From Heterodontus francisci (taxonomy: Eukaryota): DNA of 64,000 bases. This document shows, one piece after another, positions 17,429 to 63,580 of the stretch. The stretch lies in assembly GCF_036365525.1 (NCBI RefSeq), contig NC_090375.1:182373799-182437798 (forward strand), written 5' to 3'. The notes beneath the pieces were generated by a model that saw only the letters and a program-made list of their open reading frames with translations, did no database searches and was not told where the DNA came from. Each line of letters opens with the position of its first letter. The first letter of the stretch is position 1. The position numbers and the translations under genes were made by a program.

Positions 17429-17717
17429 ACCTCAGACCATTGGTCTGCATGTCTTAGGACAGCAGCAGATGGTAGATAGTTATTAGTACACTAGAGAGCC
17501 ACTTTTTCTTTGAGGACTCGTTCTGAAGTTCTTCTGATTTTATTTAATGACATGAATCATTCCACACTTGTCAAAAGGACTTGCATTTATATAGTGCCTT
17601 GTTATGAGTGAACATCCAATACAGTGATTTACTTTGGAATGCATTAATTTTAATGTAGGCAAAGTATAGTGTTTGAAAATGGTACTTAGTAATACATCTG
17701 TGAATATGTACATCCAA

Positions 17718-18105: not shown

Positions 18106-18394
18106 GTGGGAGAAAAAACTGAAAAAGTGACGTCACAGGAAAGCTGTGACCTGATTGGCTGGTAGGGAATCTGTCCCAAATTTGTAAATAAAACTGATAA
18201 AAACTGATTAAAACACTAATTAACTAATTAATAAGTAGAGTAACTAAACCAGAGGGAGTAGATTACTGTATTTAGACAGCATTTAATATTTATTGTAGAA
18301 ATCTAGCACTAGGGACCACATAGTGAAGTGTATCATAATCTAGTAAGGATTTAATAAGTATTTATTTATATCAATTAACTAATTAGTGATAGAA

Positions 18395-19320: not shown

Positions 19321-22256
19321 TGTGGCAGGGGGGTAGGAACCAGAGCAGTTGGACAGCTAGTGAAGTAAATGAGGAGGACATAGTAAATAAGGCCAGTAGG
19401 ACTAAGAGGAAGAGCAGGCAGGGAGATGTTGCTGAGCACAGCGGGACTGGTGGTCTGAAGTGCATTTGTTTCAATGCGAGAAGTATAACAGGTAAGGCAG
19501 ATGAACTTAGAGCTTGGATTAGTACTTGGAAATATGATGTTGCTATTACAGAGACTTGGTTGAGGGAAGGGCAGGATAGGCAGCTAAATGTTCCAGGCTT
19601 TAGAAGCTTCAGGCGGGATAGAGGGGGATGTAAAAGGGGTGGGGGAGTTGAATTACTGGTTAAGGAGAATATCACAGCTGTACTGCGGGAGGACACCTCA
19701 GAGGGGTCATGCAGCAAGGCAATATGGGTGGAGCTCAGGAATAGGAAGGGTGCAGTCACGATGTTGGGGGTTTACTACAGGCCTCCCAACAGCCAGCGGG
19801 AGGTAGAGGAGCAGATATGTAGCCAGGTTTTGGAAAGATGTAAAGGTAAGAGGGTTGTAGTGGTGGGTGATTTTAACTTCCCCAATATTGACTGGGACTC
19901 ACTTAGTGCCAGGGGCTTGGATGGGGCAGAATTTGTGAGGAGCATCCAGGAGGGCTTCTTGAAACAGTATGTAGATAGTCCAACTAGGGATGGGGCCATT
20001 CTGGACCTGGTATTGGGGAATGAGCCCAGCCAGGTGGTCGAAGTTTCAGTGGGGGAGCATTTCGGGAGCAGTGACCATAATTCCAAAAGCTTTAAGGTAC
20101 TTGTGGATAAGGATAAGAGTAGTCCTCGGGTGAAGGTGCTAAATTGGGGGAAGGCTAATTATAACAATATTAGGCAGGAACTGAAGAATTTAGATTGGGA
20201 GCGGCTGTTTGAGGGTAAATCAACATCTGACATGTGGGAGTCTTTCAAACGTCAACTGATTAGAATCCAGGACCAGCATGTTCCTGTGAGGAAGAAAGAC
20301 AAGTTTGGCAAGTTTCGGGAAGCTTGGATAACACGGGATATTGTGAGCCTAGTCAAAAAGAAAAAGGAAGCATTTGTAAGGGCTGTAAGGCTAGGAACAG
20401 ATGAAGCACTTGAAGAATATAAAGACCATAGGAAGGAACATAAGCAATGAGTTAGGAGGGCTAAAAGGGGTCATGAAAAGTCATTGGCAAACAGGATTAA
20501 GGAAAATCCCAAGGCTTCTCATACATATATAAACAGCAAGAGGGTAACCAGGGAAAGGATCGGCCCACTCAAGGACAGAGGAGGGAATCTATGTGTGGAG
20601 CCAGAGGAAATGGGCGAGGTGCAAAATGAGTACTTTGCATCAGTATTCACCAAAGAGAAGGACTTGGTGGATGATGAGCCTCGGGAAGGGAGTGTAGATC
20701 GTCTCAATCATCTCATTATCAAAAAGGAGGAGGTGTTGGGTGTCTTGCAAAGCATTAAGGTAGATAAGTCCCCAGGGCCTGATGGGATCTACCCTAGAAT
20801 ACTGAGGGAGGCAAGGGAAGGAATTTCTGGGGCCTTGACAGAAATCTTTGCATCCTCATTGGCTACAGGTGAGGTCCCAGAGGACTGTAGAATAGCCAAT
20901 GTTGTTCCTTTGTTTAAGAAGGGTAGCAAGGATAATCCAGGAAATTATAGGCCGGTGAGCCTTACGTCAGTGGTAGGAAAACTATTAGAGAGGATTCTTC
21001 GGGACAGGATTTACTCCCATTTGGAAACAAACGAACTTATTAGCGAGAGACAGCATGGTTTTGTGAAGGGGAGGTTGTGTCTTACTAATTTGATTGAGTT
21101 TTTTGAGGAAGTGACGAAGATGATTGATGAGGGAAGGGCGGTGGATGTTGTCTATATGGACTTCAGTAAAGCCTTTGACAAGGTCCCGCATGGCAGACTG
21201 GTGCAAAAGGTGAAGTCACACGGGATCAGAGGTGAGCTGGCAAGATGGATACAGAACTGGCTCAGTCACAGAAGACAGAGGGTGACAGTGGATGAGTGTT
21301 TTTCTGAATGGAGGGATGTGACTAGTGGTGTTCCGCAGGTATCAGTGCTGGGACCTTTGCTGTTTCTAGTATATATGAATGATTTGGAGAAAAATGTAGC
21401 TGGTCTGATTAGTAAGTTTGCGGACGACACAAAGGTTGGTGGAGTTGCGGATAATGATGAGGATTGTCAGAGGATACAGCAGGATATAGATCAGTTGGAG
21501 ACTTGGGCGGAGAAATGGCAGATGGAGTTTAATCCGGACAAATGTGAGGTAATGCATTTTGGAAGATCTAATGCAGGTGGGAAGTATACAGTCAATGGCA
21601 GAACCCTTAGGAGTATTGACAGGCAGAGAGATCTGGGCGTACAGGTCTACAGGTCACTGAAAGTGGCAACGCAGGTGGATAAGGTAGTCAAGAAGGCATA
21701 CGGCATGCTTGCCTTCATCGGTCGGGGCATAGAGTATAAAAATTGGCAAGTCATGTTGCAGCTGTACAGAACCTTAGTTAGGCCACACTTAGAATATTGC
21801 GTGCAATTCTGGTCGCCACACTAACAGAAGGACATGGAGGCTTTGGAGAGGGTACGGAGGAGGTTTACCAGGATGTTGCCTGGTCTGGAGGGCATTAGCT
21901 ATGAGGAGAGGTGGAAAAACTCGGATTGTTTTCACTGGAACGACGGAGGTGGAGGGGCGACATGATAGAGGTTTACAAAGTTATGAGCGGCATGGACAGA
22001 GTGGATAGTCAGAAGCTTTTTCCCAGGGTGGAAGAGTCAGTTACTAGGGGACATAGGTTTAAGGTGCGAGGGGCAAAGTTTAGAGGGGATGTGCGAGGCA
22101 AGATTTTTTACACAGAGGGTGGTGAGTGCCTGGAACTTGCTGCTGGGGGAGGTGGTGGAAGCAGATACGATAGCGACGTTTAAGAGACATCTTGACAAAT
22201 ACATGAATAGGAAGGGAATAGAGGGATATGGGCCCCGGAAGTGCGGAAGGTGTTAG
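19320..22256 (+). pseudogene. CR1 ORF2 (AP endonuclease + RT), stops at about 20448 and 21822 and a late frameshift
   Basis: FNARSI, ITETWL, GVYYRPP, GDFNFP, SDHN, KSPGPDG, NYRPVSLTS, QHGFVKG, MDFSKAFD, GVPQ.SVLGP, KFADDTK, RPHLEYCVQFWSP. Confidence 0.93.
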
Positions 22257-29305: not shown

Positions 29306-29657
29306 ATAGTAACCAGTAACTGAGGCTGGGGAGCAGCAAGAACTGGGCGTGCTGGAGGCCAGTAACTGAAGCCGGAGCGCAGCGAGATCTGGAGCCCAGA
29401 AACAGAGGCCGGGGAGCAGTGAGAGCTGAAGTCCAATAACTGTGGCACGTGCACCAGGCTCTTCCTATCAAGTCAACACACGGATCATTCAGAAAATGCG
29501 GACAGACACAAGCTGTATTATAGATGGTAAAGTAGAATTGGATTGATAGTGTTAGTGGGTGTAGCACCATCTGCTGGATATACTGGCTGTCCAAATTGTA
29601 TTTTTTTTTGGTCTTTGCTTAATCAGTAAGGAAATGCGCATATTTCCTTTTCATATT

Positions 29658-34295: not shown

Positions 34296-34380
34296 GTGCA
34301 ACAAGAGAAATTGGTTCAGCATTAACCAGAATGTGTATGAGACACAGAAGTATAGAGTCTAAACTTCGTCAGTTCTCGGC
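34296..34380 (+). CDS. MTSS1: MTSS1 (MIM) coding exon, I-BAR/IMD domain (exon 4 equivalent)
   Basis: Pyrimidine tract + ttag, 85 nt, gtaagt donor. Encodes GATREIGSALTRMCMRHRSIESKLRQFSA, matching the MTSS1 IMD. Confidence 0.96.
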
Positions 34381-36682: not shown

Positions 36683-37620
36683 TTTCAAGCTTCTTGAGTA
36701 TTGTTGGAGCTGCACCCATCCAGGAAAGTGGAGAGTATTTCATCACACCCCTGACTTGTGCCTTGTAGATGGTGGAAAGGCTTTGGGGATTCAGGAGGTG
36801 AGTTATGCGCCACAGGAGTCCTAGCCTCTGACCTGCTCTTGTAGCCACGGTATTCATGTGGCTACTCCAATTCAGTTTCTGGTCAATGGTAGCCCCTAGG
36901 ATGTTGATAGTGGGGGATTCAGCGATGGTAATGCCATTGAATGTCAAGGGGAGATGGTTATATTCTCTCTTGTTGGAGATGGTCATTGCCTGGCACTTGT
37001 GTGGCGCAAATATTACTTGCCACTTATCAGCCCAAGCCTGGATATTGTCCAGGTCTTGGTGCATTTCCACATGGACTGCTTCAGTATCTGAGGAGTCGTG
37101 AATGGTGCTGAGCATTGCGCAATCATCAGCGAACAACCCCACTTCTGACCTTAAGATTGAAGGAAGGTCATTGATGAAGTAGCTGAAGATGGTTGGGCCT
37201 AAGACACTACCCTGAGGAACTCCTGCAGTGATGTCCTGCAGCTCAGATGATTGTACTCCAACAACCACAACCATCTTCCTTTGTGCTCGGTGTGACACCA
37301 ACCAGCAGAGAGTTTTCCCCCTGATTCCCATTGAATCCAGTTTTGCAAGGGTGCCTTGATGCCATACTCGGTCAAATGCTGTCTTGATGTCAAGTGTAGT
37401 CACTCTCACCTCACCTCATCTCTTGCGTTCAGCTCCTTTGACCATGTTTGAAGCAAGGCAGTAATGAGGTCAGAAGTTGAGTGGCCTGGCAGAAACTAAA
37501 TGAGCAACACTGAGCAGGTTATTGCTAAACTTATGCCACTTGATAGCATTGTCGACAACTCCTTCCATAACTTGACTGATGATCAAGTGTAGACAGATGG
37601 GCCGGTAATTGCTCCCTGTT
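36683..37620 (-). mobile_element. RT region of the second CR1/L2-superclade LINE family
   Basis: [58 protein letters not shown]. Confidence 0.9.
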
Positions 37621-37649
37621 CTGTGTTGTATCCCCCCTGTGTAGTGTCC

Positions 37650-39685
37650 ACCCCCCCCCCGTGCGCTGTGTCCCCCCCCCTCCCCCCGTGCGCTGTGTCC
37701 CCCCCCCTCCCCCCGTGCGCTGTGTCCCCCCCCCCTCCCCCCGTGCGCTGTGTCCCCCCCCCCTCCCCCCGTGCGCTGTGTCTCCCCCCCCCCGTGCGCT
37801 GTGTCTCCCCCCCCCCCGTGCGCTGTGTCCCCCCCCCGTGCGCTGTGTCCCCCCCCGTGCGCTGTGTCCCCCCCCGTGCGCTGTGTCCCCCCCCCGTGCG
37901 CTGTGTCCCCCCCCCGTGCGCTGTGTCCCCCCCCCGTGCGCTGTGTCCCCCCCCCGTGCGCTGTGTCCCCCCCCCGTGCGCTGTGTCCCCCCCCCGTGCG
38001 CTGTGTCCCCCCCCCGTGCGCTGTGTCCCCCCCCCGTGCGCTGTGTCCCCCCCCCGTGCGCTGTGTCCCCCCCCCGTGCGCTGTGTCCCCCCCCCGTGCG
38101 CTGTGTCCCCCCCCCGTGCGCTGTGTCCCCCCCCCGTGCGCTGTGTCCCCCCCCCGTGCGCTGTGTCCCCCCCCCGTGCGCTGTGTCCCCCCCCCGTGCG
38201 CTGTGTCCCCCCCCCGTGCGCTGTGTCCCCCCCCCGTGCGCTGTGTCCCCCCCCCCGTGCGCTGTGTCCCCCCCCCCGTGCGCTGTGTCCCCCCCCCCGT
38301 GCGCTGTGTCCCCCCCCCCGTGCGCTGTGTCCCCCCCCCCGTGCGCTGTGTCCCCCCCCCGTGCGCTGTGTCCCCCCCCCGTGCGCTGTGTCCCCCCCCC
38401 GTGCGCTGTGTCCCCCCCCCGTGCGCTGTGTCCCCCCCCCGTGCGCTGTGTCCCCCCCCCGTGCGCTGTGTCCCCCCCCCGTGCGCTGTGTCCCCCCCCC
38501 GTGCGCTGTGTCCCCCCCCCGTGCGCTGTGTCCCCCCCCCGTGCGCTGTGTCCCCCCCCGTGCGCTGTGTCCCCCCCCGTGCGCTGTGTCCCCCCCCCGT
38601 GCGCTGTGTCCCCCCCCGTGCGCTGTGTCCCCCCCCCCGTGCGCTGTGTCCCCCCCCCGTGCGCTGTGTCCCCCCCCCGTGCGCTGTGTCCCCCCCCCGT
38701 GCGCTGTGTCCCCCCCCGTGCGCTGTGTCCCCCCCCGTGCGCTGTGTCCCCCCCCGTGCGCTGTGTCCCCCCCCCGTGCGCTGTGTCCCCCCCCCCGTGC
38801 GCTGTGTCCCCCCCCCCGTGCGCTGTGTCCCCCCCCCCGTGCGCTGTGTCCCCCCCCCCCGTGCGCTGTGTCCCCCCCCCCCGTGCGCTGTGTCCCCCCC
38901 CCCCGTGCGCTGTGTCCCCCCCCCCGTGCGCTGTGTCCCCCCCCCCGTGCGCTGTGTCCCCCCCCCCGTGCGCTGTGTCCCCCCCCCCGTGCGCTGTGTC
39001 CCCCCCCCCGTGCGCTGTGTCCCCCCCCCCGTGCGCTGTGTCCCCCCCCCCGTGCGCTGTGTCCCCCCCCCCGTGCGCTGTGTCCCCCCCCCCGTGCGCT
39101 GTGTCCCCCCCCCGTGCGCTGTGTCCCCCCCCCGTGCGCTGTGTCCCCCCCCCCGTGCGCTGTGTCCCCCCCCCCGTGCGCTGTGTCCCCCCCCCGTGCG
39201 CTGTGTCCCCCCCCCCGTGCGCTGTGTCCCCCCCCGTGCGCTGTGTCCCCCCCCCGTGCGCTGTGTCCCCCCCCCGTGCGCTGTGTCCCCCCCCCGTGCG
39301 CTGTGTCCCCCCCCCCCGTGCGCTGTGTCCCCCCCCCCGTGCGCTGTGTCCCCCCCCCCGTGCGCTGTGTCCCCCCCCCCGTGCGCTGTGTCCCCCCCCC
39401 CGTGCGCTGTGTCCCCCCCCCCGTGCGCTGTGTCCCCCCCCCCGTGCGCTGTGTCCCCCCCCCCGTGCGCTGTGTCCCCCCCCCCGTGCGCTGTGTCCCC
39501 CACCCCGTGCGCTGTGTCCCCCACCCCGTGCGCTGTGTCCCCCCCCCCGTGCGCTGTGTCCCCCCCCCCGTGCGCTGTGTCCCCCCCCCGTGCGCTGTGT
39601 CCCCCCCCCGTGCGCTGTGTCCCCCCCCCGTGCGCTGTGTCCCCCCCCCGTGCGCTGTGTCCCCCCCCCGTGCGCTGTGTCTCCC
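37650..39685 (+). repeat. Minisatellite, unit GTGCGCTGTGT + C8-11 (about 20 bp, about 100 copies)
   Basis: Directly visible, highly homogeneous array that varies mainly in C-run length. Confidence 0.98.
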
Positions 39686-39689
39686 CCGC

Positions 39690-40135
39690 CTCATTCTGTC
39701 CCCCCCCTCCATGTCCCCCTTTCTCTCTCTCCCTCACTCTCACCCGCTCTCTGTCTTCCCCTACCCGCTCTCTGCCGCTCCCTCTCTCTGTACCCCCCGT
39801 CCCCCTCCCTCTCTCTGTCCCCTCCCTTTCTCTCCCTCTGTCCCCTCCCTTTCTCTCTCTCTGTCCCCTCCCTTTCTCTCTCTCTGTCCCCTCCCTTTCT
39901 CTCTCTCTCTGTCCCCTCCCTTTCTCTCTCTCTCTGTCCCCTCCCTTTCTCTCTCTCTGTCCCCTCCCTCCCTCTCTCTCTCTGTCCGCCCCCTCCCTCT
40001 CTCGCTCCGTCCCCCTCCTTCACTCTGTCCCCACACCCTCGCCGCCTCTGCTTCCCTCCCCTGCCTCCCCCTGCTCTTGGCCCCCCCCTACCCCGCCACT
40101 CTCGCTCGCTCAGTCTCTCTCTCTCTCTCTCTCTG
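39690..40135 (+). repeat. Pyrimidine-rich (CT)n / ctgtcccctccctttctctct repeats
   Basis: Directly visible. Confidence 0.9.
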
Positions 40136-41025
40136 TGGGAACGCTCAGCAGAGCAGGTTTGTGATTGTTCAGTTTTTTGGACAAAAAGCGCAAGTCACTT
40201 TCATGGCTGACAGGTGATGGGAGCAGGAACTGCAGTTTCCTGACTTCGGACAGCTTTCGAGTTTTCCGGCAGGTTCCAACTTTTTTTAAAAGCCCGCCAG
40301 AAAACCCCAAAGCTCTTCGTAGTTGGGAAACTGCTGTTCCCGCTCCCAGCACCTGTCAGCTGTGAAACTGACGTGATTTTTAAAAAAAAAGCCAATCTAG
40401 AAAAAGAAGCCAATGCAAAATTTCTCATCTCTGAAATACATCCGCAGGCCAGATGGAAACCTTTAACGGGCCATATGTTGGACAACGTAACATGCATTGT
40501 TTCTGGGGAAAGTTGAAATAGGATTGCAGGTGACCAGGAAGGTGCAGATACGCACAGCTTACCCTCTTATGTGCAAGTCTCTTACCTGGTCTTCACATAC
40601 CTCTCTGCCTCGCTTTCCTCCTTTAAGACACTACTTAAAACGCACCTGTTTGACCAAGCTTTTGGTCATATGACCTGATGTAATCCCCTTATGTGGCTTG
40701 GTGACATAATTTGTTCTATAATTCTCCTGTGAAGCACCTTAGGATGTTTTGTTACGTTAAAGGTGCTACATAAATATAAGTTGTTGTTGCTTTAGGTTGA
40801 AGTAATGCTGCAAAGCTTGAAATCTATTTTCAATCATGTGTACTAGGCAGACCAGTAGAATTGGTATTAATGGCAAATAATCTTTTAAATTTACTAAATA
40901 GCAGTATGCACTGTTTCTAACATGACGTACACTGCAGTAGGAGATCTATAAAATATGGAATTAATTATAGTGGGGATGCAATACAGAATAATATAGACCT
41001 TGAAAGAAGTTTTCTTTGTTTAAAG

Positions 41026-41100
41026 AATATAAGAAAGCACGACAAGAAATCAAGAAGAAATCATCTGATACATTGAAACTTCAGAAGAAGGCCAAGAAAG
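41026..41100 (+). CDS. MTSS1: MTSS1 coding exon (exon 6 equivalent, basic I-BAR tip)
   Basis: aag acceptor, 75 nt, gtatgt donor. Encodes EYKKARQEIKKKSSDTLKLQKKAKK and ends in phase 1. Confidence 0.96.
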
Positions 41101-47954: not shown

Positions 47955-47974
47955 ATTGTATTGACATAATTCAG
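47955..47974 (+). CDS. MTSS1: Candidate MTSS1 microexon A (20 nt, DCIDIIQ, phase 1 to 0)
   Basis: atag acceptor (weak tract), CAG|GTATGG donor, in frame with exon 41026-41100. Confidence 0.5.
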
Positions 47975-49391
47975 GTATGGCAAAAGACAACTTTAGAACA
48001 TTTTTTAAAGGTGATTTTTGTTTTTAGGTCATACCCAATTCAACAGCAGCATTGCTGTTTGTTTCATGGCAGACTTAAACTAATGAAATAATTAAATGCT
48101 ATAAACCTATCATGAAATGTAATTCGATATAACTATTTACATTTTTTCAAGAAGGAAATTTTTTTAACAAAGATAATACCTATTATTTAAAACAGTTCAA
48201 TTAAAACTGATTTGAGCTATATTTGTTTCTATTTATGGGTCGCTGCACATTATGATCAGAGTGTAGTTTGCGGCACAGATTATTTGCAAGAGATTAGGCC
48301 ATTGCAGCATATAATCATGCTGTGGATTTCCACTATTCTAATTTTAAAACTACTGTATGTAGAATTTTTGGTCATGCACAGAAAGTCCAACTCCCTTGGA
48401 TCCTTTGTCTTAATTCTCCAGAATTTTTAATAAATAGTTTCTATTACTTATTCTGAAAGCATTCCTGCATGCTTTGTTGTACGCAATTTATCATTTTTTC
48501 CTAAAGCTGGTTTTAGAGTTACGCTTGCTTTGTTCAATACCAAAAACTGTTTGCTGAAGGGTGAACAACTGTGATTACATCAAATACTAATGTTTCAGTT
48601 TGTGTGTCACAGCTGTCCCATGTCTTGGCTAGTTATTTTTTCAAATGTATTATATACTTTATTAATGTAAAAAAAATTGATTAAGTATTTTGGCACATCA
48701 AAAATATTCGAGTAAGATTGTTGTATAAAAGTCATTAGTTTAAGATTAAAAAATTCATGCAGCATCTTAAATCAATATGGGAGTATTGGGCAACACATTT
48801 TATGATGCAAAGCTGTCCTATAAGTTTTGGGCATACATGATATTCATAGAAAAAATGATCTGCCAACAGTAATCCCCAGCATAGTTCACTTAAAAAAAAA
48901 ATGTAAGTGTTTGGGTGTGTGTTCCAGAGTGTAGGATATAGCACTCAAATGTTTTGGATGCTGTTTAGTTCTGATTATTAAGCTCATTGAGTGTTAATGT
49001 TGCAACGTGACCATCTAGTCTCTAGTGCATTCGAGGAAAATTGAAGGTACTTAATTTGATAAATACCAGTTTACTGAGTTCTTTAGTCTGACCTGTACAG
49101 CTGTATTATGGACATAATCAGCTTGTAACATTGTCCCTGTTTGAGATGTGTTGAAGAAATTCTGACTTTGATCTAATAGCAGTAGTTGCCTATCTTCACG
49201 AATGACGAGAACTAGCTTTGCAGAAGCTTTGGTTGTTTTGGCGGGGGGAAGGGTTGCGCAAACAAAATTTCATGTATTTGAGCTCTCCATTTGAAATTTG
49301 TGGGATTAGAATGGGTGGCTAGTTTTTTCAGCCGGTGCAGATACGATGGGCTGAATGGGCTCTTTCTGTGCAGTAACTTTTCTATGGTTCT

Positions 49392-50214
49392 TGTTACGAC
49401 CAGGTGAGAAAGGTGCCTAGGGGTCTTTTGCTGTCTTCACCTGGTCTTATTGCAACAGAGTTTAATTTTTAAACACAGTGTTTTGAGCTCCCCCTTGGTG
49501 AATCCTTGTTCACTGCTTTCCAATTATAAGGCAAAGAAAAGAGCATAAACAGGCTTTCTTAGGTTTAAAGAAGAAAAATGAAATTTATTAAAACTTAAAC
49601 TCTAATTCGGTTAACGCCTACAGATATACGACGTGCCCATGCTCGCATGCACACACGATACCCGCATGCCAATAGGGACAGAAAAGAGCAGAAGAAAAAT
49701 AGAGCGGTTTGAGGCAGTCCCTGAAGGGAGTTTCTTATAACTGTTCCTGTGTTTCCAGCTCGCCGTCGAGTCTTTGATTGTAGACAGCTCTTACTTTTCT
49801 CAAACCTTGTTCACGTAGGAGGCTTTTCTCTCTTGGCATTTACGTGTCTTCACTGGTTTCCGACGCTGGTGAGAACGAGATGAGAGCAGATAAGAGAGAG
49901 GTATTTTCCAGTCCAAGAGTGAACAGCTTTCTGAATTTCTTTCTCTCAGCAAGTTCAAACTGAAAAAAAACTCCCAACAGTCAGTCAGTCATGTGACTAA
50001 ACTGGTCTGACCAGTTCTTATGTGTCTTGGGGAAGCAAGGATTGGGTTCCTCGTTCCAACACTGTCTGCTAGCATGCAAATGTCTTTCCAGTCAGGGGCT
50101 TGGCAATTCCTTGTGATAGGCCCTCTGTTCTTCCCAGCCACAATTTTAAGTTTTAATGCTCATGTGGCGAAATAATGTGTGTCTCAGTCTTGGCAGGTGG
50201 GGGCCTGCATGACA
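49392..50214 (-). mobile_element. Solo LTR
   Basis: Termini TGTTACG ... CATGACA. The minus-strand end TCTCACCTGGTCGTAACA resembles the other LTR ends. TSD unclear. Confidence 0.65.
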
Positions 50215-50377
50215 GTTTATAGAAATAAACACATTGAAATCAGTTTTGGCAAGTATTTTAATTCTGAAAACTTAAAATTGTGCCATTGTCAACTTTGAAA
50301 GCAAATCCTTCTGTAAGTTTTTTTTAAGGTTTTGTTCAACACTCCATGATTTATGTGTTAATATGTGCTCTTTGTAG

Positions 50378-50392
50378 AATAAAAGGCTTGGG
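50378..50392 (+). CDS. MTSS1: Candidate MTSS1 microexon B (15 nt, NKRLG, phase 0-0)
   Basis: tgttaat..TGCtctttgtag acceptor and consensus GG|GTAAGT donor. Confidence 0.55.
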
Positions 50393-51139
50393 GTAAGTTA
50401 TATGTCCAACTATTCCTTCTCCCAAACTGGATGAAGGTGGAGTTTACAGAGAATCCCCTCCTGTCTTGTGAGCTATTCAGCATGGAAGCTCATTTTTGAA
50501 GTGACACTGTCTCTGTCACTTGTCTCATTTATGTTTCTGGTTGTTCTTTCTCCCACTGAAAGATAATCTTGCACAGTTAAAAAAAAAAATCAAATTGCAG
50601 ATTCCTTTCAGTTGATAATGTTTGGAATGTACAGAATTGGTTGAGTTTGCATTTATAAACTCCGAATCCTAAATGCTTCCTATGGTTGTTTCATGTCTTT
50701 GATCATGATTCAAATTGGCAACTATAATAATGTATAGAATATTTTATGCTTTATAAACAAACTTACTGAATATTTCCTTTACCTCCCCTGTCCCCAACCT
50801 TTACACTGACTTTGCCTAAAATAGTAAGGAACATTTTAACATTGACTAACTTTAAAAGTATTTTTCTGAATTTGATTAATATGAAAGGTATATTGCTGTA
50901 TTTTTCAAATGGAAATATCATTACTGGTTGACCCTGGTAAATTTTCATATGGACAATTCTGTGGATTATTAGGAACTGGACAGTGTGAAATCTACTCAAT
51001 CTAAGTAGTAAATGGGTTCACTAGGATAAATCTGATTATCTACATTGAGTTTTTTTTTTCCTGAAGTAGTTGTGGAACAGCAATCATCAAAGCAACTATT
51101 GTGCTGAGCTATAGACTCAGATTTGGATTGCTCCCTTAG

Positions 51140-51184
51140 ATTAATCCCAACTCTGAGAGCATACTTACTAGTTGCGATATCCAG
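51140..51184 (+). CDS. MTSS1: Candidate MTSS1 short exon C (45 nt, INPNSESILTSCDIQ, phase 0-0)
   Basis: TGCtcccttag acceptor, CAG|GTAAGC donor, open in the required frame. Confidence 0.5.
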
Positions 51185-51297
51185 GTAAGCTTTAGCATAA
51201 AAGGTTGTGCCCAGGTAACCAACAGTACAGCCTATTAAGTGATTTTAACTGTTGGAATTATTCTGTGCCTTCCTAGGATCCTTCTCCAATCTTCAGT

Positions 51298-52299
51298 TGT
51301 TATGAAATTACTTCCATTTTTTGTTCAATTTTTTTTGAGGACTTGGGTTTTAAAACTGAAGATTCCATAAATGCTGGACTTTCTTTTAAAAAAAAAAGAG
51401 TGCATTGGAAGGTCTTTTGGACTTGGTTTATAAACAACCCTTACTGGAAGTCACCTGTCTTCAGATAAGTACCCAGCGGGGGCTTTTTGACCTGGAGAGG
51501 ATGTTTACAGAGAAGTGACAGTTCAAGATTTATAGGGGTTAGGAGGCTTTACTCTTGAGGTATTGTTTTTGGTTTTGCTTTGGCCAGTGAGCTGGGGGTG
51601 TGGACAGTGCTTTGAAAGGAGTTTGAAAGTCAACCTTCCAAAGACAAAAACCCCCAACTCTGCCTTTTCAATCTTTTTGGAAAGGCTGCCAGCTTTTCCA
51701 TCTCTGTGAAAAAGCTCTGCATTTTCAGTGTGATAACCAAAACCCTTGATGCTGCATTCCTCTCAAAGGCCTGCCTGAAACCCCTGTTGCCGCATTTCTC
51801 CGGGAAAGCCTGCCAAACTGATCCTTGATCAGTTGATCGCTTGAAAAGAAATGTTCTAGGTAGATCCCATTGACAATCGTCTACGCGTATTTGGGACACC
51901 AGACCAAAAGGGACATCTTTCCGGTTTTTTTTTCCTTCAAGAATTAGCAAGTATTTGGCCAAAGTATTCTTTTCTGTCTTTTTTGTAACAAACCTCTGCA
52001 GAGAGAGAATTTCTGGGGTTTTTTTCAGTGTGAATTTGTGTGTGGGGAATTTAAAAAGGGAACTTTCATGTTTCAATCTGTGTGTTACTGCTTTGCTTCA
52101 TTATAGGATAAGTCTTGTTTTGATATATCAGATAATTTTGTTGGTTATTGAAGAAACCTGGTTAATGTATTTTATTCTGGGACAAAAATAGAGTCTGTGA
52201 TTGACCGTATTAACTGGGTAAACATTTAAATATAGGTTGTGACCTGCAGAAAAGTGGAACTAGAAACAACAGTGCACCACACCTGCCTCGGTCATAACA
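51298..52299 (+). mobile_element. Solo LTR (1002 bp) with 4-bp TSD
   Basis: Perfect terminal inverted repeat TGTTATGA ... TCATAACA with TSD CAGT on both sides. Confidence 0.85.
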
Positions 52300-52779
52300 C
52301 AGTCAACAGAAGAACATTACAACCTCAGATCTCATTTTTGGTTTAAATTATTAATTTAATATGAATATGTGAACCAGTGATGAAATAAATATATACCTTT
52401 TTACAATAAAAATCATTTTTTCTACCTCCTCCAAGTGAAATTAGCAAGGTTGCAAACTATTGCTAATTGTTCTTTTGTACAATACTTTTATATATACACT
52501 TTTTTTTGGGTTACTGCAGCAGGTAGTTAGTCTACTTCAATTTTCTGTAACGATTCAAATCAGTTCTACCCTCTTCTAAACTCCACATTCAGCTCTGTTC
52601 TTTTCAAATATCGCTGAAAACTGTTTTTGGGATCTCCTGCATTTTGAATAAATGTCGACTACTTTTGGAAATAAGTTGTTGCCATACATAGAACGAATTA
52701 TATTTTTCTGTTGGTTTGAAAGTGGTTTGTCTCTTCTTTCAGTCTTCTAGCTAACTGAACCAAACTTTGTCCTATTTTT

Positions 52780-53835
52780 GCCTCTGTCAGAAGGTTGTGG
52801 GTTCAGGTGCCCCCAAAGAGACTTGAGCACAAAATGCCAGCTGACACTTCAAGCTGAATTTTACCCCGACAGCGGGGGTACCGGCGACGGGCCAGAAGGC
52901 AGGAGGCAACCCCACCTCGGCCCTGTTTTGGACCACAGCCGAATTCCACGGGATCCTGCCTGCAAAAGCTGCCGGCCAATCAGAGGGCTGGCAGCTCAGT
53001 GGTACCGGCAGCAGTGGCTACTGCTGGTACTACAGGAGGCCTGGGACCAGGACTGGAGCCCCAGACCACAAGTAAGTGGGGCAGGTTTGCTGGGGCCAGT
53101 CCAACAGGCCTTGCCAATGGGGGCCCTGAGAGGGTGGTTCTTGAGAGCAAGGGTTGTTTGCGGAGGGGTAGCCTTTGCCGCCTGGGGCCCTCTATGGGTT
53201 GCTGATTGCCCATGGAGGACAGCACCCCCAGCCCACAAGGAGGCCTCCTTCCTTTACTGGGCAACTGCTCTACGTGGCAGAGGCACATCCCACTGCTTGT
53301 AAAATACCAGTGGCAGTGGGAAGGGGCCCTTAAGCGGCCATTAATTGGCTACTTAAGGGCCTCAATTGGTCTCTGGGTGGGAAGACGGTCCTCGGCCATC
53401 CTCGACCCCAGACTAAATGCCGGCATTGGGAAGGCGACAGGCACTCTGCCCCCTGCCTTCTGACTCAATTTTATGGTCCCCCACTGCCTCCATTCCCGTC
53501 CCTAGGGGGCTCCATAAAATTCAGCCCTCTACTGCAGTACTGAGGCAGTGCTGTTGGAGGTACCATCTGCTGGTTGAGATGTTAAACTGAAGTTCCATCT
53601 GCCCACCCAGATGGACGGAATAGATCCGATGGCACTATTCTGAAGAAGAGCAGGGGAGTGTTTGTTGGTATTCTGGCCAATATTTATCCCTCAACCAACA
53701 TCATTAAAACAGATTATCTGGTCATTATCTCATTGTTGTGTGTGGGACCTTTGTGTGTGCAAATTGCTGCCCTGTATCCTACATTACAACAGTGACTACA
53801 CTTCAAAATTAACTGACTGTAAAGTGCTTTAGAAC
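52780..53835 (+). mobile_element. Deu-domain SINE interrupted by a Harbinger-type MITE (52851-53527)
   Basis: tRNA-like head at about 52780-52850 and Deu core CAGATTATCTGGTCATTATCTCATTG..CCTACATTACAACAGTGACTACACTTCAAAA. MITE ends AGCTGAATTTTA / TAAAATTCAGCCC. Confidence 0.75.
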
Positions 53836-54734
53836 ATTGTCGTCTTCTAAGTGGGACTTGTCACCTTTCTTACAAGTCTCTATCTTGCTGGGAGTTGACT
53901 ACTTAGCTAAAAGTCTAAGATAAAATACTTTCTCCCAGCATTATTTTCTAATGCTACAAGGGAGAAGCCTCCTGTGTCAGGATATTTTGATGGAATTCTG
54001 TCCTGAAACCATGAAATGCATTCCTACGTAGCAATGTCTCATTTTTATTTAATGGAAACTCAACACTCCAATCCCCCCCGATCTGCTAGATTAATTGATG
54101 CCAGCTGATTGCCAGAGGACCTCAGTTCTTCTCGCAGGTGCCTTTCCGTACTGAATTTGCTGTAGTTTAGGTGCACAGCGATTTGAACCCATACCTCGCT
54201 GGCTGGCTAATTCAAGCTTTCACCTGGAACTCAGCCAAGCAAGAGGTCTGGGGAGTAATCGTGGTTGGTCTTTTTGGCCAATCATGAAAATTTGCAGTCA
54301 AACCCCACGCAATGCCCTGTGCCTCTGTGTTGTTAGCTTGTCTCAGTTGATCGCATTGTCACTCTGAATCAAGCCCTAACTTTATGCAGCAAGTCTAATT
54401 TGTACTTGCAGCACAAATCCAGCAATTTCCAAAAACCCATGGGATCAACAGGAAGATCTCATTTTTGCAAGGCAAATGACCGCAAATCATCCAGCAATTT
54501 GCAACTCATAGCTGATCTCTTTGCCACAACTTGCTGGTTTTTTTTACACACAAATAACAACATGCGCATCAAAGTCACCATTATTTTCCCTGCCAATTCT
54601 GGGACTTTGTCACATTTCGCCAGCATACATTCTATTTATCTCCACACTCTGTCTCCTACCTCCCCACTAATTTTCAAGCCATATCCTAAAGTTGCCTCCA
54701 ATTCCATACGCTCTCATTCTGGCTAATAATCTCT

Positions 54735-54995
54735 TTTGTATGAATCTTATCAAAAGCCTTAAGGAAATCCATATATACAAAAGCCATAGATACTCTCCTG
54801 TCCACCTTGCAGTGAAGACCTCCTCAAAAAAAATTTAATTGGATTAGTCAGACATGACCTACCCTTCACAAATCCACACTGACTTTATTTGATTGGCTCA
54901 TACTTGTTCAAATATTGTCATTCTGTCCCTAATGGATACCAGTAACTTATCTACAACTGGCATTCAACTGACAGGTCTGTAGTTTGCTGGTTCCC
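54735..54995 (-). mobile_element. Degenerate CR1 RT fragment
   Basis: Reverse strand reads NYRPVS, SQCGFVKGRSCLTN and YMDFLKAFDKI. Confidence 0.6.
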
Positions 54996-55112
54996 CCTCC
55001 CTCCTGTCTAAAAAGTGCAAAACGATTTTTGAATTTTTTTTTAATTACTGCATTGTGTAAGTCTGGGTTTAGGAAATGGTTCACTTTATTGGTTACAGAC
55101 AATTTAATAATG

Positions 55113-56170
55113 TACTAGCAGAGACCTGCAGAGCATTTTGGGTCAACTTTGTATACTTAACCAATTCCATCATCTCCTCCCCACCCTCCCATACCATCCC
55201 CATCACATGCCATTCCCTCCTTCCCAAGAAACCTCTCCGATGCGATCCCCGCCCTCCCACTTCTCCCATGCCATTCAACCCATCCTGTCCCACCTCCCCC
55301 CATGCCTCCCACTTCTCTGCCATCCCCATCGCATGCCATTCCATCCCTCCCATTTGTTTCCTCCTATGCCACCTTTCCCATGCCATCCTTCTTCCATTCC
55401 ATGCCATCCCCTCCCTCCATTCCATGCCATCCCCTCCCTCCATTCCTCCCATGCCATCCCAAACCTATGCCATGCCCATCCCCCATTTCATCTCCCTTCA
55501 CCTCCCCCACCCCATGCCATGTTATCCTCACCTTCCATGCTGTTCTCCCATCCGCAGTGTCGTCATCTCTCCCTCGTCGTGCAATCCCCCTCCCCCCACC
55601 CCACTGTCCTCTGTCTCTCCAGCCAGGGTAACTTTGTTGTTGGGCTCCCTTTACTTCCTGCTGTTTTTTCCTCCACCAAACAGCTCCATACTGCCACCAA
55701 CGTCCCTCCCATGCTGTTGCCCCGTCTCCCCCCCGCCCCCAATCCCTCCAGCCAGGATAACCTTGTTGGGCTCCCTTTACTTTCTGCTTTTTTTTCCTCC
55801 ACCAAACAACTCCATACTGCCACTAACATCCCTCCCATGCTGTTCTGCCCCTCCCCCCCCCCCCCCTCCCCACCCGCCTCAAATCCCTCCAGCCAGGATA
55901 ACTTTGTTCTTGGGCTCCCCTTACCTTCCACTGTTCTTTTTCTCCACAAACTCCCATTTCACCACTGCTACCAACTGTTGGCACATGTGTCACACGCTCC
56001 AGTCCTCCACGTGCCTGTGTGTGTGCCAGGCTCCACCCACCAAATCAACCCACTGACTGGTCAGAAAAATGCAGACAAAAATTACATGTTAATATCGATT
56101 TTAATTTAAACATGTGATACATTTGGCAAAATGCCCCAAATTGGTGATTGTTTGAAACTTGGCACAATCC
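55113..56170 (-). mobile_element. Non-autonomous element with a CCATG/CCATC tract and three imperfect 130-140 bp tandem units, possibly a Helitron
   Basis: Same left boundary as 26846. Units CCAGCCAGG(G/A)TAAC.TTGTT..GGGCTCCC at about 55619, 55748 and 55889. Right edge uncertain. Confidence 0.45.
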
Positions 56171-56591
56171 CTGGGGGGGGGGGGGGGTGGTCAGGATGAA
56201 AAAAGAATATTTAAAGGTTCACCTCCTGAATCTGACCTGATCTCCCAGATCGCTGAATGATGCACATGAGCAGCCTGGAAATGGCATTTCCTGTGATGGA
56301 GTGCATCACCTCTGTTGATCAGCTTCTCACAGTAAAGACCTGGGGATTACAGGCAAAAATTTGTTCTATTTGTTGCAATGCATTCACTGCCCCATTGCAA
56401 AATTAGAAAATCCTCCTATTTCCCTTCCCCGCATCCAACTTTGCCAACCTCTCTGATTTTCCCCATCTTGCTCTTTAGTCAGACAATAGGAGGTTGCTTT
56501 CTTACCAGCTATTCTCCCTAGAAGGAAATTTGTTCTGATCAAGAGCACACCTTGAGGATTTGTGGATATGGGCTCATGTCTCACCACTCCA

Positions 56592-56811
56592 GGCACGAGG
56601 GACTTCAGTTACATGGAGAGACTACAGAAGCTGGAGTTATTCACCTTAGAAGAGAGAGGATTATGGAGATATTTAATAGGGGTGTTCAAAATTATGAAGA
56701 GTTCTGATGAGCTAACTGAAGAGAAACTGTTTCCACTGGCAGAAGGGTTGGTAACCAGAGGATGCAGATTTATGATAGTTGGCAAAAGAACCAGAGGGGC
56801 AAGGGGGAGAC
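56592..56811 (+). repeat. Internal CR1 segment flanked by a 24-bp direct repeat; inverted copy of about 57885-58103
   Basis: ATGGGCTCATGTCTCACCACTCCA at 56568-56591 and 56812-56835. Confidence 0.85.
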
Positions 56812-57281
56812 ATGGGCTCATGTCTCACCACTCCAAGACAGCACAGCCTACCAGCAATAGTTTTATGAAGAAGTATTCTCACTAGTTGTACCTTCATGTC
56901 TGATGGAAGTCACAACTAAATTTAATTCCATGATGAATGCACTGTTTTACTTGTTTGGTTCTTTGCTTGTGACACTATAATTCTTCACCTCATTCCAAAA
57001 TAAGATGCAACTCTTTACTGCTTTAAAAGCAACCTAATTGTTTGAATGAATTGTATTTCTTAAGCTAATGCCTGTGCAGTTTTAAAATTTCTTCTGTGAG
57101 TTATGCTTTAACTTATTTGAGGCAGGGACAAGGTTCATGACATTGAGATTGTTTGACTTAGTTGGTCAAAGGACAGGCCTTTTTTATGCTGCTGCTTATT
57201 GTGCCTTATTTCCCTATTAAGGCCTCTAACATACTTCTAAATCCTTCTGTAATGTTGTGCTGTTCCTTTTTGCTCTCTTAG

Positions 57282-57312
57282 GAGAAATTCTCAGCATCCC
57301 TCACTGAAATTG
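57282..57312 (+). CDS. MTSS1: Candidate MTSS1 microexon D (31 nt, EKFSASLTEI, phase 0 to 1)
   Basis: Long pyrimidine tract ending TGCtctcttag, weaker TTG|GTATAA donor. Restores phase 1 for the 12-nt microexon. Confidence 0.5.
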
Positions 57313-57669
57313 GTATAAGTCACTAAAAGTAATAAACTGATTCTAGTGTGGCTCAGGTAACCTACTTCCAAACAGAGATTCCTGAATCTCTCTTAGTGCA
57401 AGGGGAAGAAGGAACAGCATTATTTCATGTAAATAGTGACATGGAGAAGTGGAAACAGCATTATTTTATGGAAATGGCGAGCAAGGCCAAGGCATAAATC
57501 GCTAAGATTTTGATGTTCCCCATTCCAATTAATTTTCAGGGTCCAATTACCCTTTTTGTTGCTGGCCACCAAGAGACAAGTTTACTGCAGCCCAGAAGTG
57601 GCTTTGCAAAAGGGCACTCTATTTGAGTCTTGGAATTAATTGGCGGGGAAAATGTAACTAGACCAAGTT

Positions 57670-58220
57670 AGAATTATACAGCCATTCAACTGATTGTGCC
57701 TGTGCTGGCTCTTTGAAATAGATGTCCAATTAGTCTCACTCTCCTCTTTCTCCATGGCCCTGTAAAAGTTTTCTTTTCAAAGTATATATCCAGTACCCTT
57801 TGGAAAGTCTAGTATTGAATCTGCTTCCACCATCCTTTCTGGTAGTGAATTCCAGATTTTAACTCTCTGCTTAAATTTTTTTGCTCCTCCTTGCCCCTCT
57901 GGTTCTTCTGCCGACTATCATAAATCTGCAACCTCTGGTTACCAACCCTTCTGCCAGTGTAAACAGTTTTGCTTCAGTTATCCCATCAGAACTCTTCATA
58001 ATTTTGAACACCCCTATTAAATATCTCCATAACCTTCTCTGTTCTGAGGTGAATAACTCCAGCTTCTGTAGTCTCTCCATGTAACTGAAGTCCCTCGTGC
58101 CTGGTACCATTCTAGTAAATCTGCTCTGCACTTTATCCACAGCCTTGATACCTTCAGAAAGTGTGGTGTCTGAAATGCTCCAGCTAAGGACTAACCAGTG
58201 ATTTTGAAGGTTTAGCATAA
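57670..58220 (-). mobile_element. CR1 3' fragment
   Basis: KVQSRFTRMVPGTRDFSYMERLQKLELF and a 3'UTR. Confidence 0.85.
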
Positions 58221-59339
58221 CTTACATATGAGCTTTTAAAAATAATTCTCAGTTGATGAGTAAGAATTGTAAAGTATAGCTGGAAAAAAAGATATTTGGC
58301 ATTAGACCATTTATTTTCTACAGTTCTATATTTCCTAATCTTTTTGGGGGGAATTTTGTGTTTTTTAATTAGCTGTTGCAACTCTAGTATTGTACTGATA
58401 TAAATTTAATTTTTTTAAACTTTAGATTTTTTAAAGTCTTTCTATAAATTTGAGAGGGTAAATTGATAACTGGTGTCTGTGGTACTGAAAAGTTAACTTG
58501 TATGCTTGTATGAGTATATGGTCATATGAAATATCCTTTCATTTGCAAGCAAATGATCGACATTATTTACATTAATTTGTTTGCATTACCTCCTTGTGCA
58601 TTTACATCAAAACTCAAACTGAACAAGTTGACCAAAAAAGTTGTGTGTGTAAATGGCTATAAAGTGAATTTTTACTTTTATTTTAAATTCAGCCCCTTAA
58701 AATCCACTATTTGACACAATAGTGTTGAAATAAATTTCCATCAACTTTTGTAATTTTCTGCTTTGCAAATTTTAAACTGTTAATAGGATAAGCAGGTGAC
58801 ATAATTTAACTGTAAATTAGGCTTATTGCAAATTGTGATTTGTGTCTTGTTATGGTGGTAATATATCTTTAATTTTATCTTGTTAACACGTTGCATATAA
58901 TTTTCCTTCATTCACTCCTACCTTTTTAAATTAATGTCCCCAAACTGTTGGCATCAGTAGTTGTTCATAAAGATGTTTATGGCAAAAAGACTGGACTGAA
59001 GTGCCACAAGTGGATATGTCACTTACACAATGCAAACATAAGTTTGATTGACAATATGATTGCGCTCGCTATTAACTGTAAGTTATCAGATTGTAAACTG
59101 ATATGCAATGAGTGACTGACTTCCAACCTTATAGAACCGTATTATCAAGCACATAAATATAACTTGGGTGAGCAATATTATCTTGTAGTTCTGTTGAAAT
59201 GAAATATGAGTTTGCATATACATGTATGATTTGGCACAGAACTAGATACTGATATTGTGCATAACACCATGAAGATTAGATTGACTTAATATTTTTTCCT
59301 TTTTGTATCAAATTTTGCTGTGCCATATCTTCCTGCTAG

Positions 59340-59351
59340 CTGATGTTTTTG
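59340..59351 (+). CDS. MTSS1: MTSS1 12-nt microexon (ADVF), counterpart of the 4-aa IMD insert exon of mammalian MIM
   Basis: gacttaat branch-like site, long pyrimidine tract with TGC motifs, ctag|CTGATGTTTTTG|gtaagt. Phase 1-1. Size, phase and position match the known insert between KKAKK and GRGD. Confidence 0.8.
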
Positions 59352-60899
59352 GTAAGTTGAGCTCTACCCTGCTGGCTGGTGGTTAAACCTTTTTGTGGGA
59401 TCCATGTGCATAAATGGTATTCACCAGTAACTGCCAGTCCGTTTCTTCCCTTTGCCTCTCACCTTTTCTCCCCTCCTCCCACTATGAAGAAGCCTTTGAC
59501 TATCTCAGTGTTTCAATGCTGGTGCCTTTGTTCTGAAATGAATAAAGAAGTGGCACACTGTGCAATATATGTTCTGTTGTGCCATATTTAGAGGTAAATC
59601 TGATGCAGTGAAATAAGTACCTGAAACTATTGACTAGAAAACAGTTGCATTGTAGCAATACTTATTTGAAATTTAATCTTCTGAATGTTGGGTACTTTTG
59701 GGATTAAACAGCAACAGAAGTTTTACATTTAATATGCCAAAATGCCATTAATACAAAATGTAAAGGATTATGATGGTGAAAGATTTGACTTGCTCTATGG
59801 ATTTTATGATGACAGAAGTTGAAAATGTGATGTGTTCAAGGAGGAATTTAGTAAAACTCAAAGGCATTTTATTTTATTTGAGTATGATGCTTTTTTAAAG
59901 AGTTAAAAACTTATATCCATATTCACAAGCACATAACAGTTATAAATATAACCTATAAATGTGATTTAATCAACCATTAGACTGCTGTAACTCGTATGCA
60001 TACCACTAACTGCTTGATCATTTTAATGTAAGTTCTTGACAAATGAGACATCAGTAAGCAAAAACCTTTGATTCAACTTTTTGGTATAAATGTACTACTT
60101 TAGATTTTTCAAGCTATAAATTGTACAGTACTGTTGTTTAATCTTATGTTTAAATGTGGCTATGTCCACTTCAAAGTTGTATTCTTACTACTACAAGACC
60201 TTGGTCATTCTGAGTTCAGCAGGGAGTCTTGTCTACTAGAAGGATACCTCTGAAATTCAGGTGTACACTATTATGATTTTGTGACCATTAAGTGAACTCC
60301 TGAATTTCCAGTGTGCTCTTCTGGCAAGCAAGGCTTCCAAAGATTTTGTAATTTTATGCACCCATCTCCTCCACATTCCCATGTCTTTGGGAAAGATTTG
60401 GGAGCCATCTCCTAGAGTCATAGAGTCATCGGCCCCTAATTGACAAACCTTCCCTCTATCCAACTTTTCTCAAAGGGAATTGGGGAGTAATAGGCCTCTT
60501 AAAGGGAACTTCCGCTTTGTGAAATTAGCACATTCTTGCTACAGTGAGAGAGGTATGAGCCTAAAAGCTTTTCAAGAGTCAGCAATCTGATTTCAGGGAA
60601 GAAAATAGTTGTATGTGTGGTTGGTATGCTGCCACCTTAATATGCTTAGTTAGTCTAGCTTAGAGAGATTCCTTAGTCTTGAGTAATTAGAACTGTAACC
60701 TTTTTTACATTATCACTATGTACAGCTTCACACCAGCTTATGGAACTCCTCTGAAACCACGCTGCATCTCCAAGTCTCTCTCTCATGTGATCTCTTACAT
60801 TATCATGGTAGGAGATATTCTTTACATTTTCTCAAAATTAACCCTTTCAGACCCTTATACTACATCTCCCCCAGGTCTTTATCCAAATATATATATTTA

Positions 60900-61189: not shown

Positions 61190-63580
61190 TTGAATCTTTC
61201 AGGAGTCTTCACAACTCTTCCTGATCATGGTGTTGTCAGATGTGAAAGATTGCAGGTCTTTCTTTGAACTCTTGTTTCTTGACTTGCACGGCCTTCATTG
61301 AGGTTCGTAGTATCTGGTGCTTTCTAAATTTCAGGTTCGACATCTGGTTCATCCAAATGTATGACTGATTGATGTCTTTGATGAATAGAAATAAGATTTT
61401 TCCTGTTCTTATTTAATACAAACTTCAGAAGGTACTATAAGATCACTGTTGATTTTCATCTCTCTGCTTCGGTCTCATACCCATACCTTTTATCCTTCTG
61501 TTAACTTCGATAGGTTCCTGGTATCGTATTTCTTCCTGTAATTATAGGCTTGTTGCTTTCTGTAAGACTTTTCTCTGTCTTTAGACGCTCTGATAATCCT
61601 GGACTTGTAGTCCTGAAAGTAACTTTTTGGGTAGGATTGGAAGTTGTGTTGTAAGATTCCTTCCCATCAAGAATTCTGATGGTGCTAATCTGCATAGCAG
61701 TGGAGTAGTTCTGTAGTAGAGTCGAAGAGACTTAGTAGTTGGCAGGAAAAAAGAGAGGCGCAAGGGGAGAGCCAACTGTCCAACAGCCCCAACAAACAAA
61801 TTTCTCTGCAGCACCTGTGGAAGAGCCTGTTACTCCAGAATTGGCCTTTATAGCCACTCCAGGCGCTGCTTCACAAACCACTGACCACCTCCAGGCGCGT
61901 ATCCATTGTCTCTCGAGATAAGGAGGCCCAAAAGAAAAAGTTCTGTAGTTCAGGAGTGCCGATTGAAAATCTTGATTTTTCTTTAACAGTGCTTTAAGAG
62001 TTCTAACTCTTTTCTCGCTTCTCCGTTAGATTGTGGTTATCTAGGGGAACTTGTTAGATGTACAAATGCACAGTTTTCCACAAATTGTGTCAAGTAGTCG
62101 TTTGCAAGTTGTGGTCCATTATCGGACACTATCTGGTCAGGTTTAGCATGTGTTGCGAAGATTTCTTGTAACAGTCGAAGGACTGCTTCAGTTGTTGTTG
62201 CGTACAAACGTTTGACCTCGATCCACCTTAAAAAGTAGTCACTGACAATCAGGTAGGATTTTGCATTAAATCTGAATAGATCCATCGCCAAATGTTCCCA
62301 CGGTCTAGTTGGGAATTGGTTCCTTCTGATCCTGTCTGTACTCTGCACAGACCTAATTTGAAATCATTTGTTCTATATCTTTCGATATTGCCGGCCACCA
62401 CACAGATGCCTGAGCGTATTTTTTCTAAGATATCTACTCAGAGTGACTCTGGAATCACCAGTCTCTTGTCATATACCAGCAAATCATCCGCTATGGTAAA
62501 GTGTCTTCTGTGTTCGAAGAAGATTTTCATCCTCTTACCACTGGAACTCTGTTGCAGCCAGGTTTGCTTGCAGTATTGGCGGATATAAATCATCTTCTTG
62601 CATCTGCGCATGACGAATTTCTTGGGGTTTCTTTAAGCTTGCCAGCGAGAATATGACTCAATTTCATTAATAAAATTAACATCCTGTTGTGTAGCATGGT
62701 CGACATTAGCTGTGGGCAATGCATCTGCTGTCGGTCTGTTGATTGCCCTGTACGTATACCGTTTCGTACACGAACTTCATTAGCCTCAATTGGAATCTCT
62801 GGATTTGCGGAGGCATTCTAGCAAATTCCTTTTCGTCAAGTAAGGAAACTAGAGGTTTTTGGTCTATCTCTATGACCACCTTTAAGTCAATTATGCAATC
62901 TGAAAATTTCTCACTTGCCCACATGACTGCGAGAGCTTCTTTCTCTATTATGACTTACCTCGTCTCAGTGTCAGACAATGCTCATGACATATAATAAACC
63001 GGTCTTCTACTTCCATCTGGCTGTTCTTGGAAAAGGACTGCCCCTATCCTTGTAGATGAGGCGTCTGCTGCAGTTGCAGTTGGAAGTGAAGGGTTATAAT
63101 GCCTAAGACATCCGGTGAAATCAGCACTTCCTTGATCATTTGAAATGCTTGTTCCTGATGTGCATCACAGCACCATGCTTGAGCTTTCCTTAATAGTTGT
63201 CGCAAAGGCTCAATAACTTGCGCAAGAGTAGGTAAGAATTTTGCCAATTTATTGACCATGCCAAGGAACCGTTGAAGATCGTGGACAGAAATAGGAAGTG
63301 AGAATTCATTAATGGCTCTCGTCTTTTGTGGGTCTGTCATTATGCTGCTGCCACTGACAGTGTGTCCTAAAAAACGAATTGTTGTTTTTGAAAACTCACA
63401 CTTCTCATTGAGTCTTAGGCCTTCATTTTGCGGATGATTCAAAACCGCTCTAACCCTTAGGTCATGTTCTTCAGTGGACTCACCGTGAACTAAGATGTTG
63501 TCCATATGGCAAGATGTTGTCTTCAAGGCCCGGTAGAATATTCAACATAGTTCTTTGAAATATTTCTGGTGCTGATTTGA
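61190..63580 (-). mobile_element. Gypsy/Ty3 LTR retrotransposon pol remnant (RT, RNase H, integrase)
   Basis: SAPEIFQRTM, HMDNILVHG, LQRFLGMVN, EIDQKPLVSL, RPWEHLAMDLF..YLIVSDYF, IVSDNGPQ, TSSPR and LNYRTTP, in RT-RH-IN order. Confidence 0.9.
61718..61938 (+). mobile_element. 5'-truncated RTE 3' end inserted in the Gypsy integrase
   Basis: Matches the RTE tail at 5045-5260 in reverse. TSD AGTTCTGTAGT at 61707-61717 and 61939-61949. Confidence 0.85.

Follow-up and report, generated by a model that had tools for sequence, protein, structure and literature searches.

In mouse, exon 7 of the MTSS1 (MIM) gene encodes four residues at the ends of the I-BAR dimer. The long form was reported to have a Rac binding of 10–15% of that of the short form, and both forms bind PI(4,5)P2 and induce filopodia alike (Mattila 2007, PMC2064081, accessible portion). 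In mouse cerebellum, exon 7 was included and no skipped band was observed (Glassmann 2007, PMC2194783, accessible portion), and the exon 7 site was described as the most variable part of the I-BAR domain (Sci Rep 2019, PMC6411742, accessible portion). The accessible portions of these three papers do not mention further exons in this intron, those of PMC11615175 and PMC10178952 add nothing on exon 7, and extra exons in this intron are absent from the titles and abstract openings of the literature found, with subscription papers lying outside its coverage. Here, we describe the corresponding region of the shark Heterodontus francisci, which is contained in a stretch of 64,000 nt (G000:C5:182373799-182437798, the window). 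The window carries a part of MTSS1 including five short AG..GT units in intron 6, which a first inspection of the sequence (the original prediction) had interpreted as a combinatorial cassette of microexons that could insert up to 41 residues at the tip of the I-BAR domain.

Two other systems are relevant for comparison. MTSS2 (MTSS1L/ABBA) has a 9-nt microexon (VastDB HsaEX0040737) that was SRRM4-responsive in human cells (PMC7935315, accessible portion). In addition, the architecture of SRRM3/4-regulated neural microexons has been described (bioRxiv 10.1101/2024.09.17.613571), and MTSS1 is not named in the accessible portion of the main text.

It is very probable that unit 5 represents the conserved exon 7 of MTSS1 and that units 1–4 are unused pseudo-exons of the 30-kb intron. 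The units and the flanks of unit 5 are as follows (window positions):

47955–47974, forward strand: unit 1, 20 nt, a probable pseudo-exon with a weak acceptor, causing a frameshift if used alone
50378–50392, forward strand: unit 2, 15 nt, a probable pseudo-exon with a good donor and TGC at −12, a poison-exon candidate
51140–51184, forward strand: unit 3, 45 nt, a probable pseudo-exon with a good donor and TGC at −11, a poison-exon candidate
57282–57312, forward strand: unit 4, 31 nt, a probable pseudo-exon with a strong acceptor and a non-consensus donor, causing a frameshift and a stop if used alone
59340–59351, forward strand: unit 5, 12 nt, phase 1 to 1, encoding ADVF, a real alternative microexon
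59240–59440 (limits approximate), forward strand: conserved intronic flanks of unit 5, with a pyrimidine tract, TGC motifs and a downstream element

The basic observations of the original prediction were reproduced. All five units are preceded by AG and followed by GT, and their lengths of 20, 15, 45, 31 and 12 nt were confirmed. Joined after the phase-1 exon at 41026–41100, units 1–5 add 123 nt, keep the frame and contain no stop codon. The nearest TGC motifs are found at −23, −12, −11, −11 and −6 relative to the acceptors, and thus four of the five are within 15 nt. As had been claimed, the units are in non-repeat sequence, in that each neighborhood matched only itself in the shark's own genome in a search that skips very common words. 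A repeat origin of the units was rejected within the reach of this search, as their surroundings are single-copy; the self-search also showed that a repeat starts about 110 nt after unit 3. Compared with the definition of microexons as exons of 3–27 nt, units 1 and 2 are within the range, whereas units 3 (45 nt) and 4 (31 nt) exceed it.

The identification of unit 5 was based on proteins and on intron sequences. The comparison covered the intron of this shark and proteins, together with one metagenomic contig (L008) and paralogous introns, and splicing was deduced from sequence. The protein search found 5957 proteins, the best 120 of which were listed and extended beyond cartilaginous fishes to tetrapods and eels, and three cluster look-ups added members to the protein set. 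Of the 180 cartilaginous-fish proteins, 169 belong to 23 named species, and the other 11 are Logan proteins of skate clusters; the fragment P0001, which begins within intron sequence, was excluded, and most database isoforms are predictions. Between KKAKK and GKGD, 151 of the 180 proteins have no insert, 28 contain ADVF joined directly to KKAKK, none has another insert, and one skips the region. Unit 5 is alternatively included, with isoforms with and without ADVF in Chiloscyllium plagiosum, Scyliorhinus canicula and Callorhinchus milii, where ADVF is found in 8 of 16, 9 of 15 and 9 of 19 database predictions, respectively. In an additional set of 89 short proteins, ADVF was found in three, all of teleost origin. 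The insert site is occupied by ADAL in 11 eel and monotreme proteins and by AEAL in 3 turtle and bird proteins. In mouse 2D1L, VDAQ is found in the same four alignment columns as the shark ADVF. The proposal that unit 5 corresponds to the four-residue exon of mammals was thus borne out by the 28 ADVF proteins and by the alignment with 2D1L.

The intronic flanks gave a congruent result. A metagenome scan with the next constitutive exon yielded at least 8 loci from 595 candidate stretches. Among the metagenome loci listed, the 12-nt exon was covered only by L008 (89%), and a blastn comparison of the shark intron with the metagenome loci gave no meaningful match besides L008. This vertebrate contig has a 12-nt exon that encodes AEAL. 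Unit 5 and its flanks aligned with positions 764–974 of L008, the sole comparison sequence, with a local alignment score of 80, while 39 control pieces of intron 6 had a mean of 32.7 and a maximum of 41. Upstream of the 12-nt exon, TGC is found at −24, −19 and −6 in the shark and at −18 and −10 in L008.

Accordingly, unit 5 has the features of exon 7, i.e. 12 nt, phase 1 to 1, and four residues between KKAKK and G[RK]GD. Like mouse and human MTSS1 exon 7, which distinguishes IMD-L from IMD-S, it lies directly after KKAKK at the dimer tip; both the shark and the mouse exon are alternatively included, and the shark exon aligns column for column with 2D1L. In contrast to the mouse exon (VDAQ), the shark exon reads ADVF, and the effects on Rac and lipid binding are known from mouse only. 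By sequence comparison, unit 5 is therefore the shark orthologue of the already known mammalian MTSS1/MIM exon 7. It also has the microexon architecture, with a length between 3 and 27 nt, a kept frame, UGC before the AG and conserved flanks. In size, frame, UGC near the acceptor, a good donor and flank conservation from shark to amniotes, it resembles the SRRM3/4-regulated microexons, with which units 1–4 share only the UGC and the AG/GT.

Like unit 5, the MTSS2 microexon is short and frame-keeping. Human MTSS2 proteins have ELL at the position of the unit 5 insert, and from its length HsaEX0040737 is presumably the ELL exon. The MTSS2-like paralogue of the shark, on C17, contains a 9-nt ELL unit (L003:2762-2770) with a GTAAG donor and TGC at −12, and a matching ELL unit is found in L009 at 3030–3038. 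In contrast to unit 5 with its 12 nt, the MTSS2 exon has 9 nt, and its flanks align with those of unit 5 no better than controls. A further MTSS paralogue in the same genome is located on C16. This third MTSS-family gene (G000:C16:100326592-100361971, reverse strand) has a KKVKK tip and a 35-kb intron at this position; the intron was scanned for candidates only, and four phase-compatible short candidates were found, none of them supported.

Quantification of the reading frames did not yield results in favor of the combinatorial cassette. When all 31 combinations of the five units were considered, 22 led to a stop codon, and the nine open ones were unit 5 alone and eight combinations for which units 1 and 4 are both required. 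Therefore, the set cannot act as independent cassettes. Used singly, all four of units 1–4 led to a stop and none gave an open frame. Units 2 and 3 are multiples of three, yet a stop is reached at the second codon when they are joined to exon 6. If unit 2, unit 3 or both were real poison exons, this stop would send the mRNA to nonsense-mediated decay. Such exons would lower the MTSS1 dose in some cells and couple neural splicing to MTSS1 decay, and unit 5 would be unchanged. Both units keep the frame, are single-copy, lie 750 nt apart and combine good donors with TGC at −12 and −11. However, a random AT-rich unit by default runs into a stop early on, and the passing of a stricter filter by these two units has P = 0.175 (see below). 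We regard a poison function as distinctly improbable.

Splice sites were scored with approximate frequencies, not with MaxEntScan, and the lowest scores were those of the unit 1 acceptor (−5.0) and the unit 4 donor (−3.6). Several other AG..GT units in intron 6 outscored all five. Units 1–4 were found in none of the 180 cartilaginous-fish proteins, and seven 5-residue words derived from them were present in none of 336 proteins. No unit aligned with the paralogous introns of C17 and L009 above the control level. Unit 3 with its natural downstream frame (32 residues) gave one match among 1.84 billion protein representatives, namely P0223 (1602 residues, 43% identity), which is not MTSS1-like, and this search was too insensitive to count against unit 3. 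No RNA runs were listed as containing window positions 50200–51400, which is evidence neither for nor against the units. The absence of units 1–4 from proteins is moderate evidence against them as coding exons and no evidence against exons that trigger decay.

The chance expectation was estimated with a unit filter that had been made loose enough to admit all five units. Without repeat masking, an open chain of at least five units was obtained in 24 of 100 Markov shuffles, and among five real control regions, the two that yielded chains of 8 and 10 were both antisense. Repeats were then masked against about 414 kb of intron-rich DNA. With the TGC filter, masked intron 6 contained 7 units in 18,646 nt, and the sense-strand controls contained 35 in 185,607 nt. 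Since unit 5 counts as a real exon, the appropriate comparison is with the frequency of chains of four. In 5000 draws from 83 control units, an open chain of at least four had P = 0.19, or 0.44 given six units. The excess of units itself (six versus 4.2 expected) had P = 0.24. A TGC within 15 nt was found in 108 of 405 control units (27%), and its presence in three of units 1–4 had P = 0.06 before allowing for picking by eye. A stricter filter kept units 2, 3 and 5 only, i.e. two extra units versus 0.75 expected (P = 0.175).

Several observations weigh against the interpretation of units 1–4 as pseudo-exons and of unit 5 as the only real exon. TGC-type units occur in intron 6 at about twice the control rate, and when TGC was required in masked sequence, chains of more than three units were absent from all 12 matched control windows, compared with a chain of five in intron 6. 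The latter result is the strongest point for the predicted cassette, but the TGC filter behind it was tuned to admit all five units, and without the TGC requirement chains of at least five units were present in 7 of the 12 windows. Like the real exon, units 2 and 3 pass the stricter filter, which units 1 and 4 do not. ADVF itself is annotated in only 3 of the 23 named species and is absent from the three isoforms of this species; annotation thus missed it in 20 of 23 species, and rarer exons could be missed as well. Exons that trigger decay would not be visible in protein databases at all, and 7 members of two clusters were outside the protein set. Lastly, units 1–4 had control-like scores of 31–36 against L008, but this contig starts 876 nt upstream of its 12-nt exon and does not test them.

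Against this background, a coding cassette in which units 1 and 4 are included together, units 2, 3 and 5 are optional, and 17 to 41 residues are added in a rare cell type or lineage can be judged. In its favor, the five units together form an open chain in frame, eight open combinations use units 1 and 4, all units are single-copy, and the TGC-type units of intron 6 provide no other chain of five. However, none of the 180 proteins contains such an insert, although ADVF was captured 28 times, the obligatory units 1 and 4 have the worst sites and drop out under the stricter filter, a chain of four has P of about 0.19 by chance, and two antisense controls had even longer chains. This cassette is therefore very improbable. 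Taken together, that intron 6 has further real short exons, be it a cassette (units 1 and 4 obligatory, units 2 and 3 optional, up to 41 residues) or the poison exons 2 and 3, is unlikely, and the evidence favors neither of the two. Unit 5 is beyond chance, and the present figures do not place units 1–4 beyond it; chance and selection by eye are enough to explain them, though this is not proven. From the predicted chain of five microexons, unit 5 remains as a supported real exon, whereas units 1–4 are without support. The combinatorial insert of 41 residues is not supported, although not strictly refuted, in view of the 22 stop-containing combinations, the lack of units 1–4 in proteins and the lengths of units 3 and 4.

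The window encompasses the I-BAR part of MTSS1, and both the gene and the place at the I-BAR tip had been predicted correctly. The IMD (PF08397) was matched exon by exon, the next constitutive exon shares 100% identity with shark proteins that bear the name MTSS1-like, and P0128 matched mouse PDB 2D1L with E = 8e-147. The protein P0037, named Heterodontus francisci, agrees with the exons of the window. The next constitutive exon lies outside the window, 7.2 kb beyond its end, and thus intron 6 has a length of 30.1 kb. The features are:

29496–29526, forward strand: an alternative first exon inside the gene (coding part), which encodes the N-terminus specific to isoform X3 (P0134)
34296–34380, forward strand: MTSS1 constitutive exon 4, 85 nt, I-BAR, matching PF08397 and agreeing with P0037
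35013–35104, forward strand: MTSS1 constitutive exon 5, 92 nt, I-BAR
41026–41100, forward strand: MTSS1 constitutive exon 6, 75 nt, ending with KKAKK plus one base (phase 1)
41101–64000, forward strand: the part of intron 6 within the window, which continues to window-equivalent 71230
G000:C5:182445029-182445186: next constitutive exon, window-equivalent start 71231

The internal first exon at 29496–29526 splices in phase 1 to exon 4, so that the initial portion of the I-BAR is missing from the resulting MTSS1. Its existence raises the question whether some of the units belong to another transcript, either as 5′ exons of an MTSS1 form from an internal promoter or as parts of a non-coding RNA. 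The gene has at least this one internal first exon, the eel isoform X6 (P0225, Anguilla rostrata) has its start shortly before the ADAL exon and is devoid of most of the I-BAR, and the sites of unit 1, a poor acceptor and a good donor, are those expected of a first exon. However, no CpG island covers the units, the window contains no Rfam match at the gathering score, and none of the 180 isoforms starts with peptides of the units, which makes this explanation extremely improbable.

Some further features were observed. Long repetitive open reading frames occur in several frames of a GC-rich tandem array, about 2.5 kb in size, that lies between exons 5 and 6 (window 37470–40200). Broken retroelement open reading frames are found at 5093–8533, 15503–17486, 18383–21824 and 62037–63541; from their translations, we take them to be endonuclease/reverse-transcriptase-like and, near 62 kb, integrase-like. 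P0127 (C. plagiosum isoform X1) has a 27-residue insert between exons 3 and 4 inside the I-BAR, possibly an alternative first exon that the annotation has fused to the others, and P0131 (C. punctatum isoform X13) skips exons 4–6.

With unit 5 as exon 7, the gene would make two forms of the I-BAR tip, with and without ADVF, and units 1–4 would not be spliced in at meaningful levels. By analogy to mouse, the ADVF insert likely weakens Rac binding, and it may thereby uncouple Rac binding from membrane bending. Its inclusion is probably neural-biased and helped by SRRM3/4, as suggested by the conserved TGC, the general microexon architecture and the SRRM4-responsive 9-nt exon of MTSS1L. If further short exons were real after all, a phase-linked cassette that rebuilds the membrane-bending tip, or UGC-marked poison exons of MTSS1, would be new compared with the papers found. 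With unit 5, the gene gains a 12-nt exon that none of the three isoforms of this species in the protein set contains. Both the microexon at the tip and its flanking intron sequence date back to the root of the jawed vertebrates, the ADVF of sharks being shared unchanged by some teleosts, and the Rac-binding switch would thus be an old feature.

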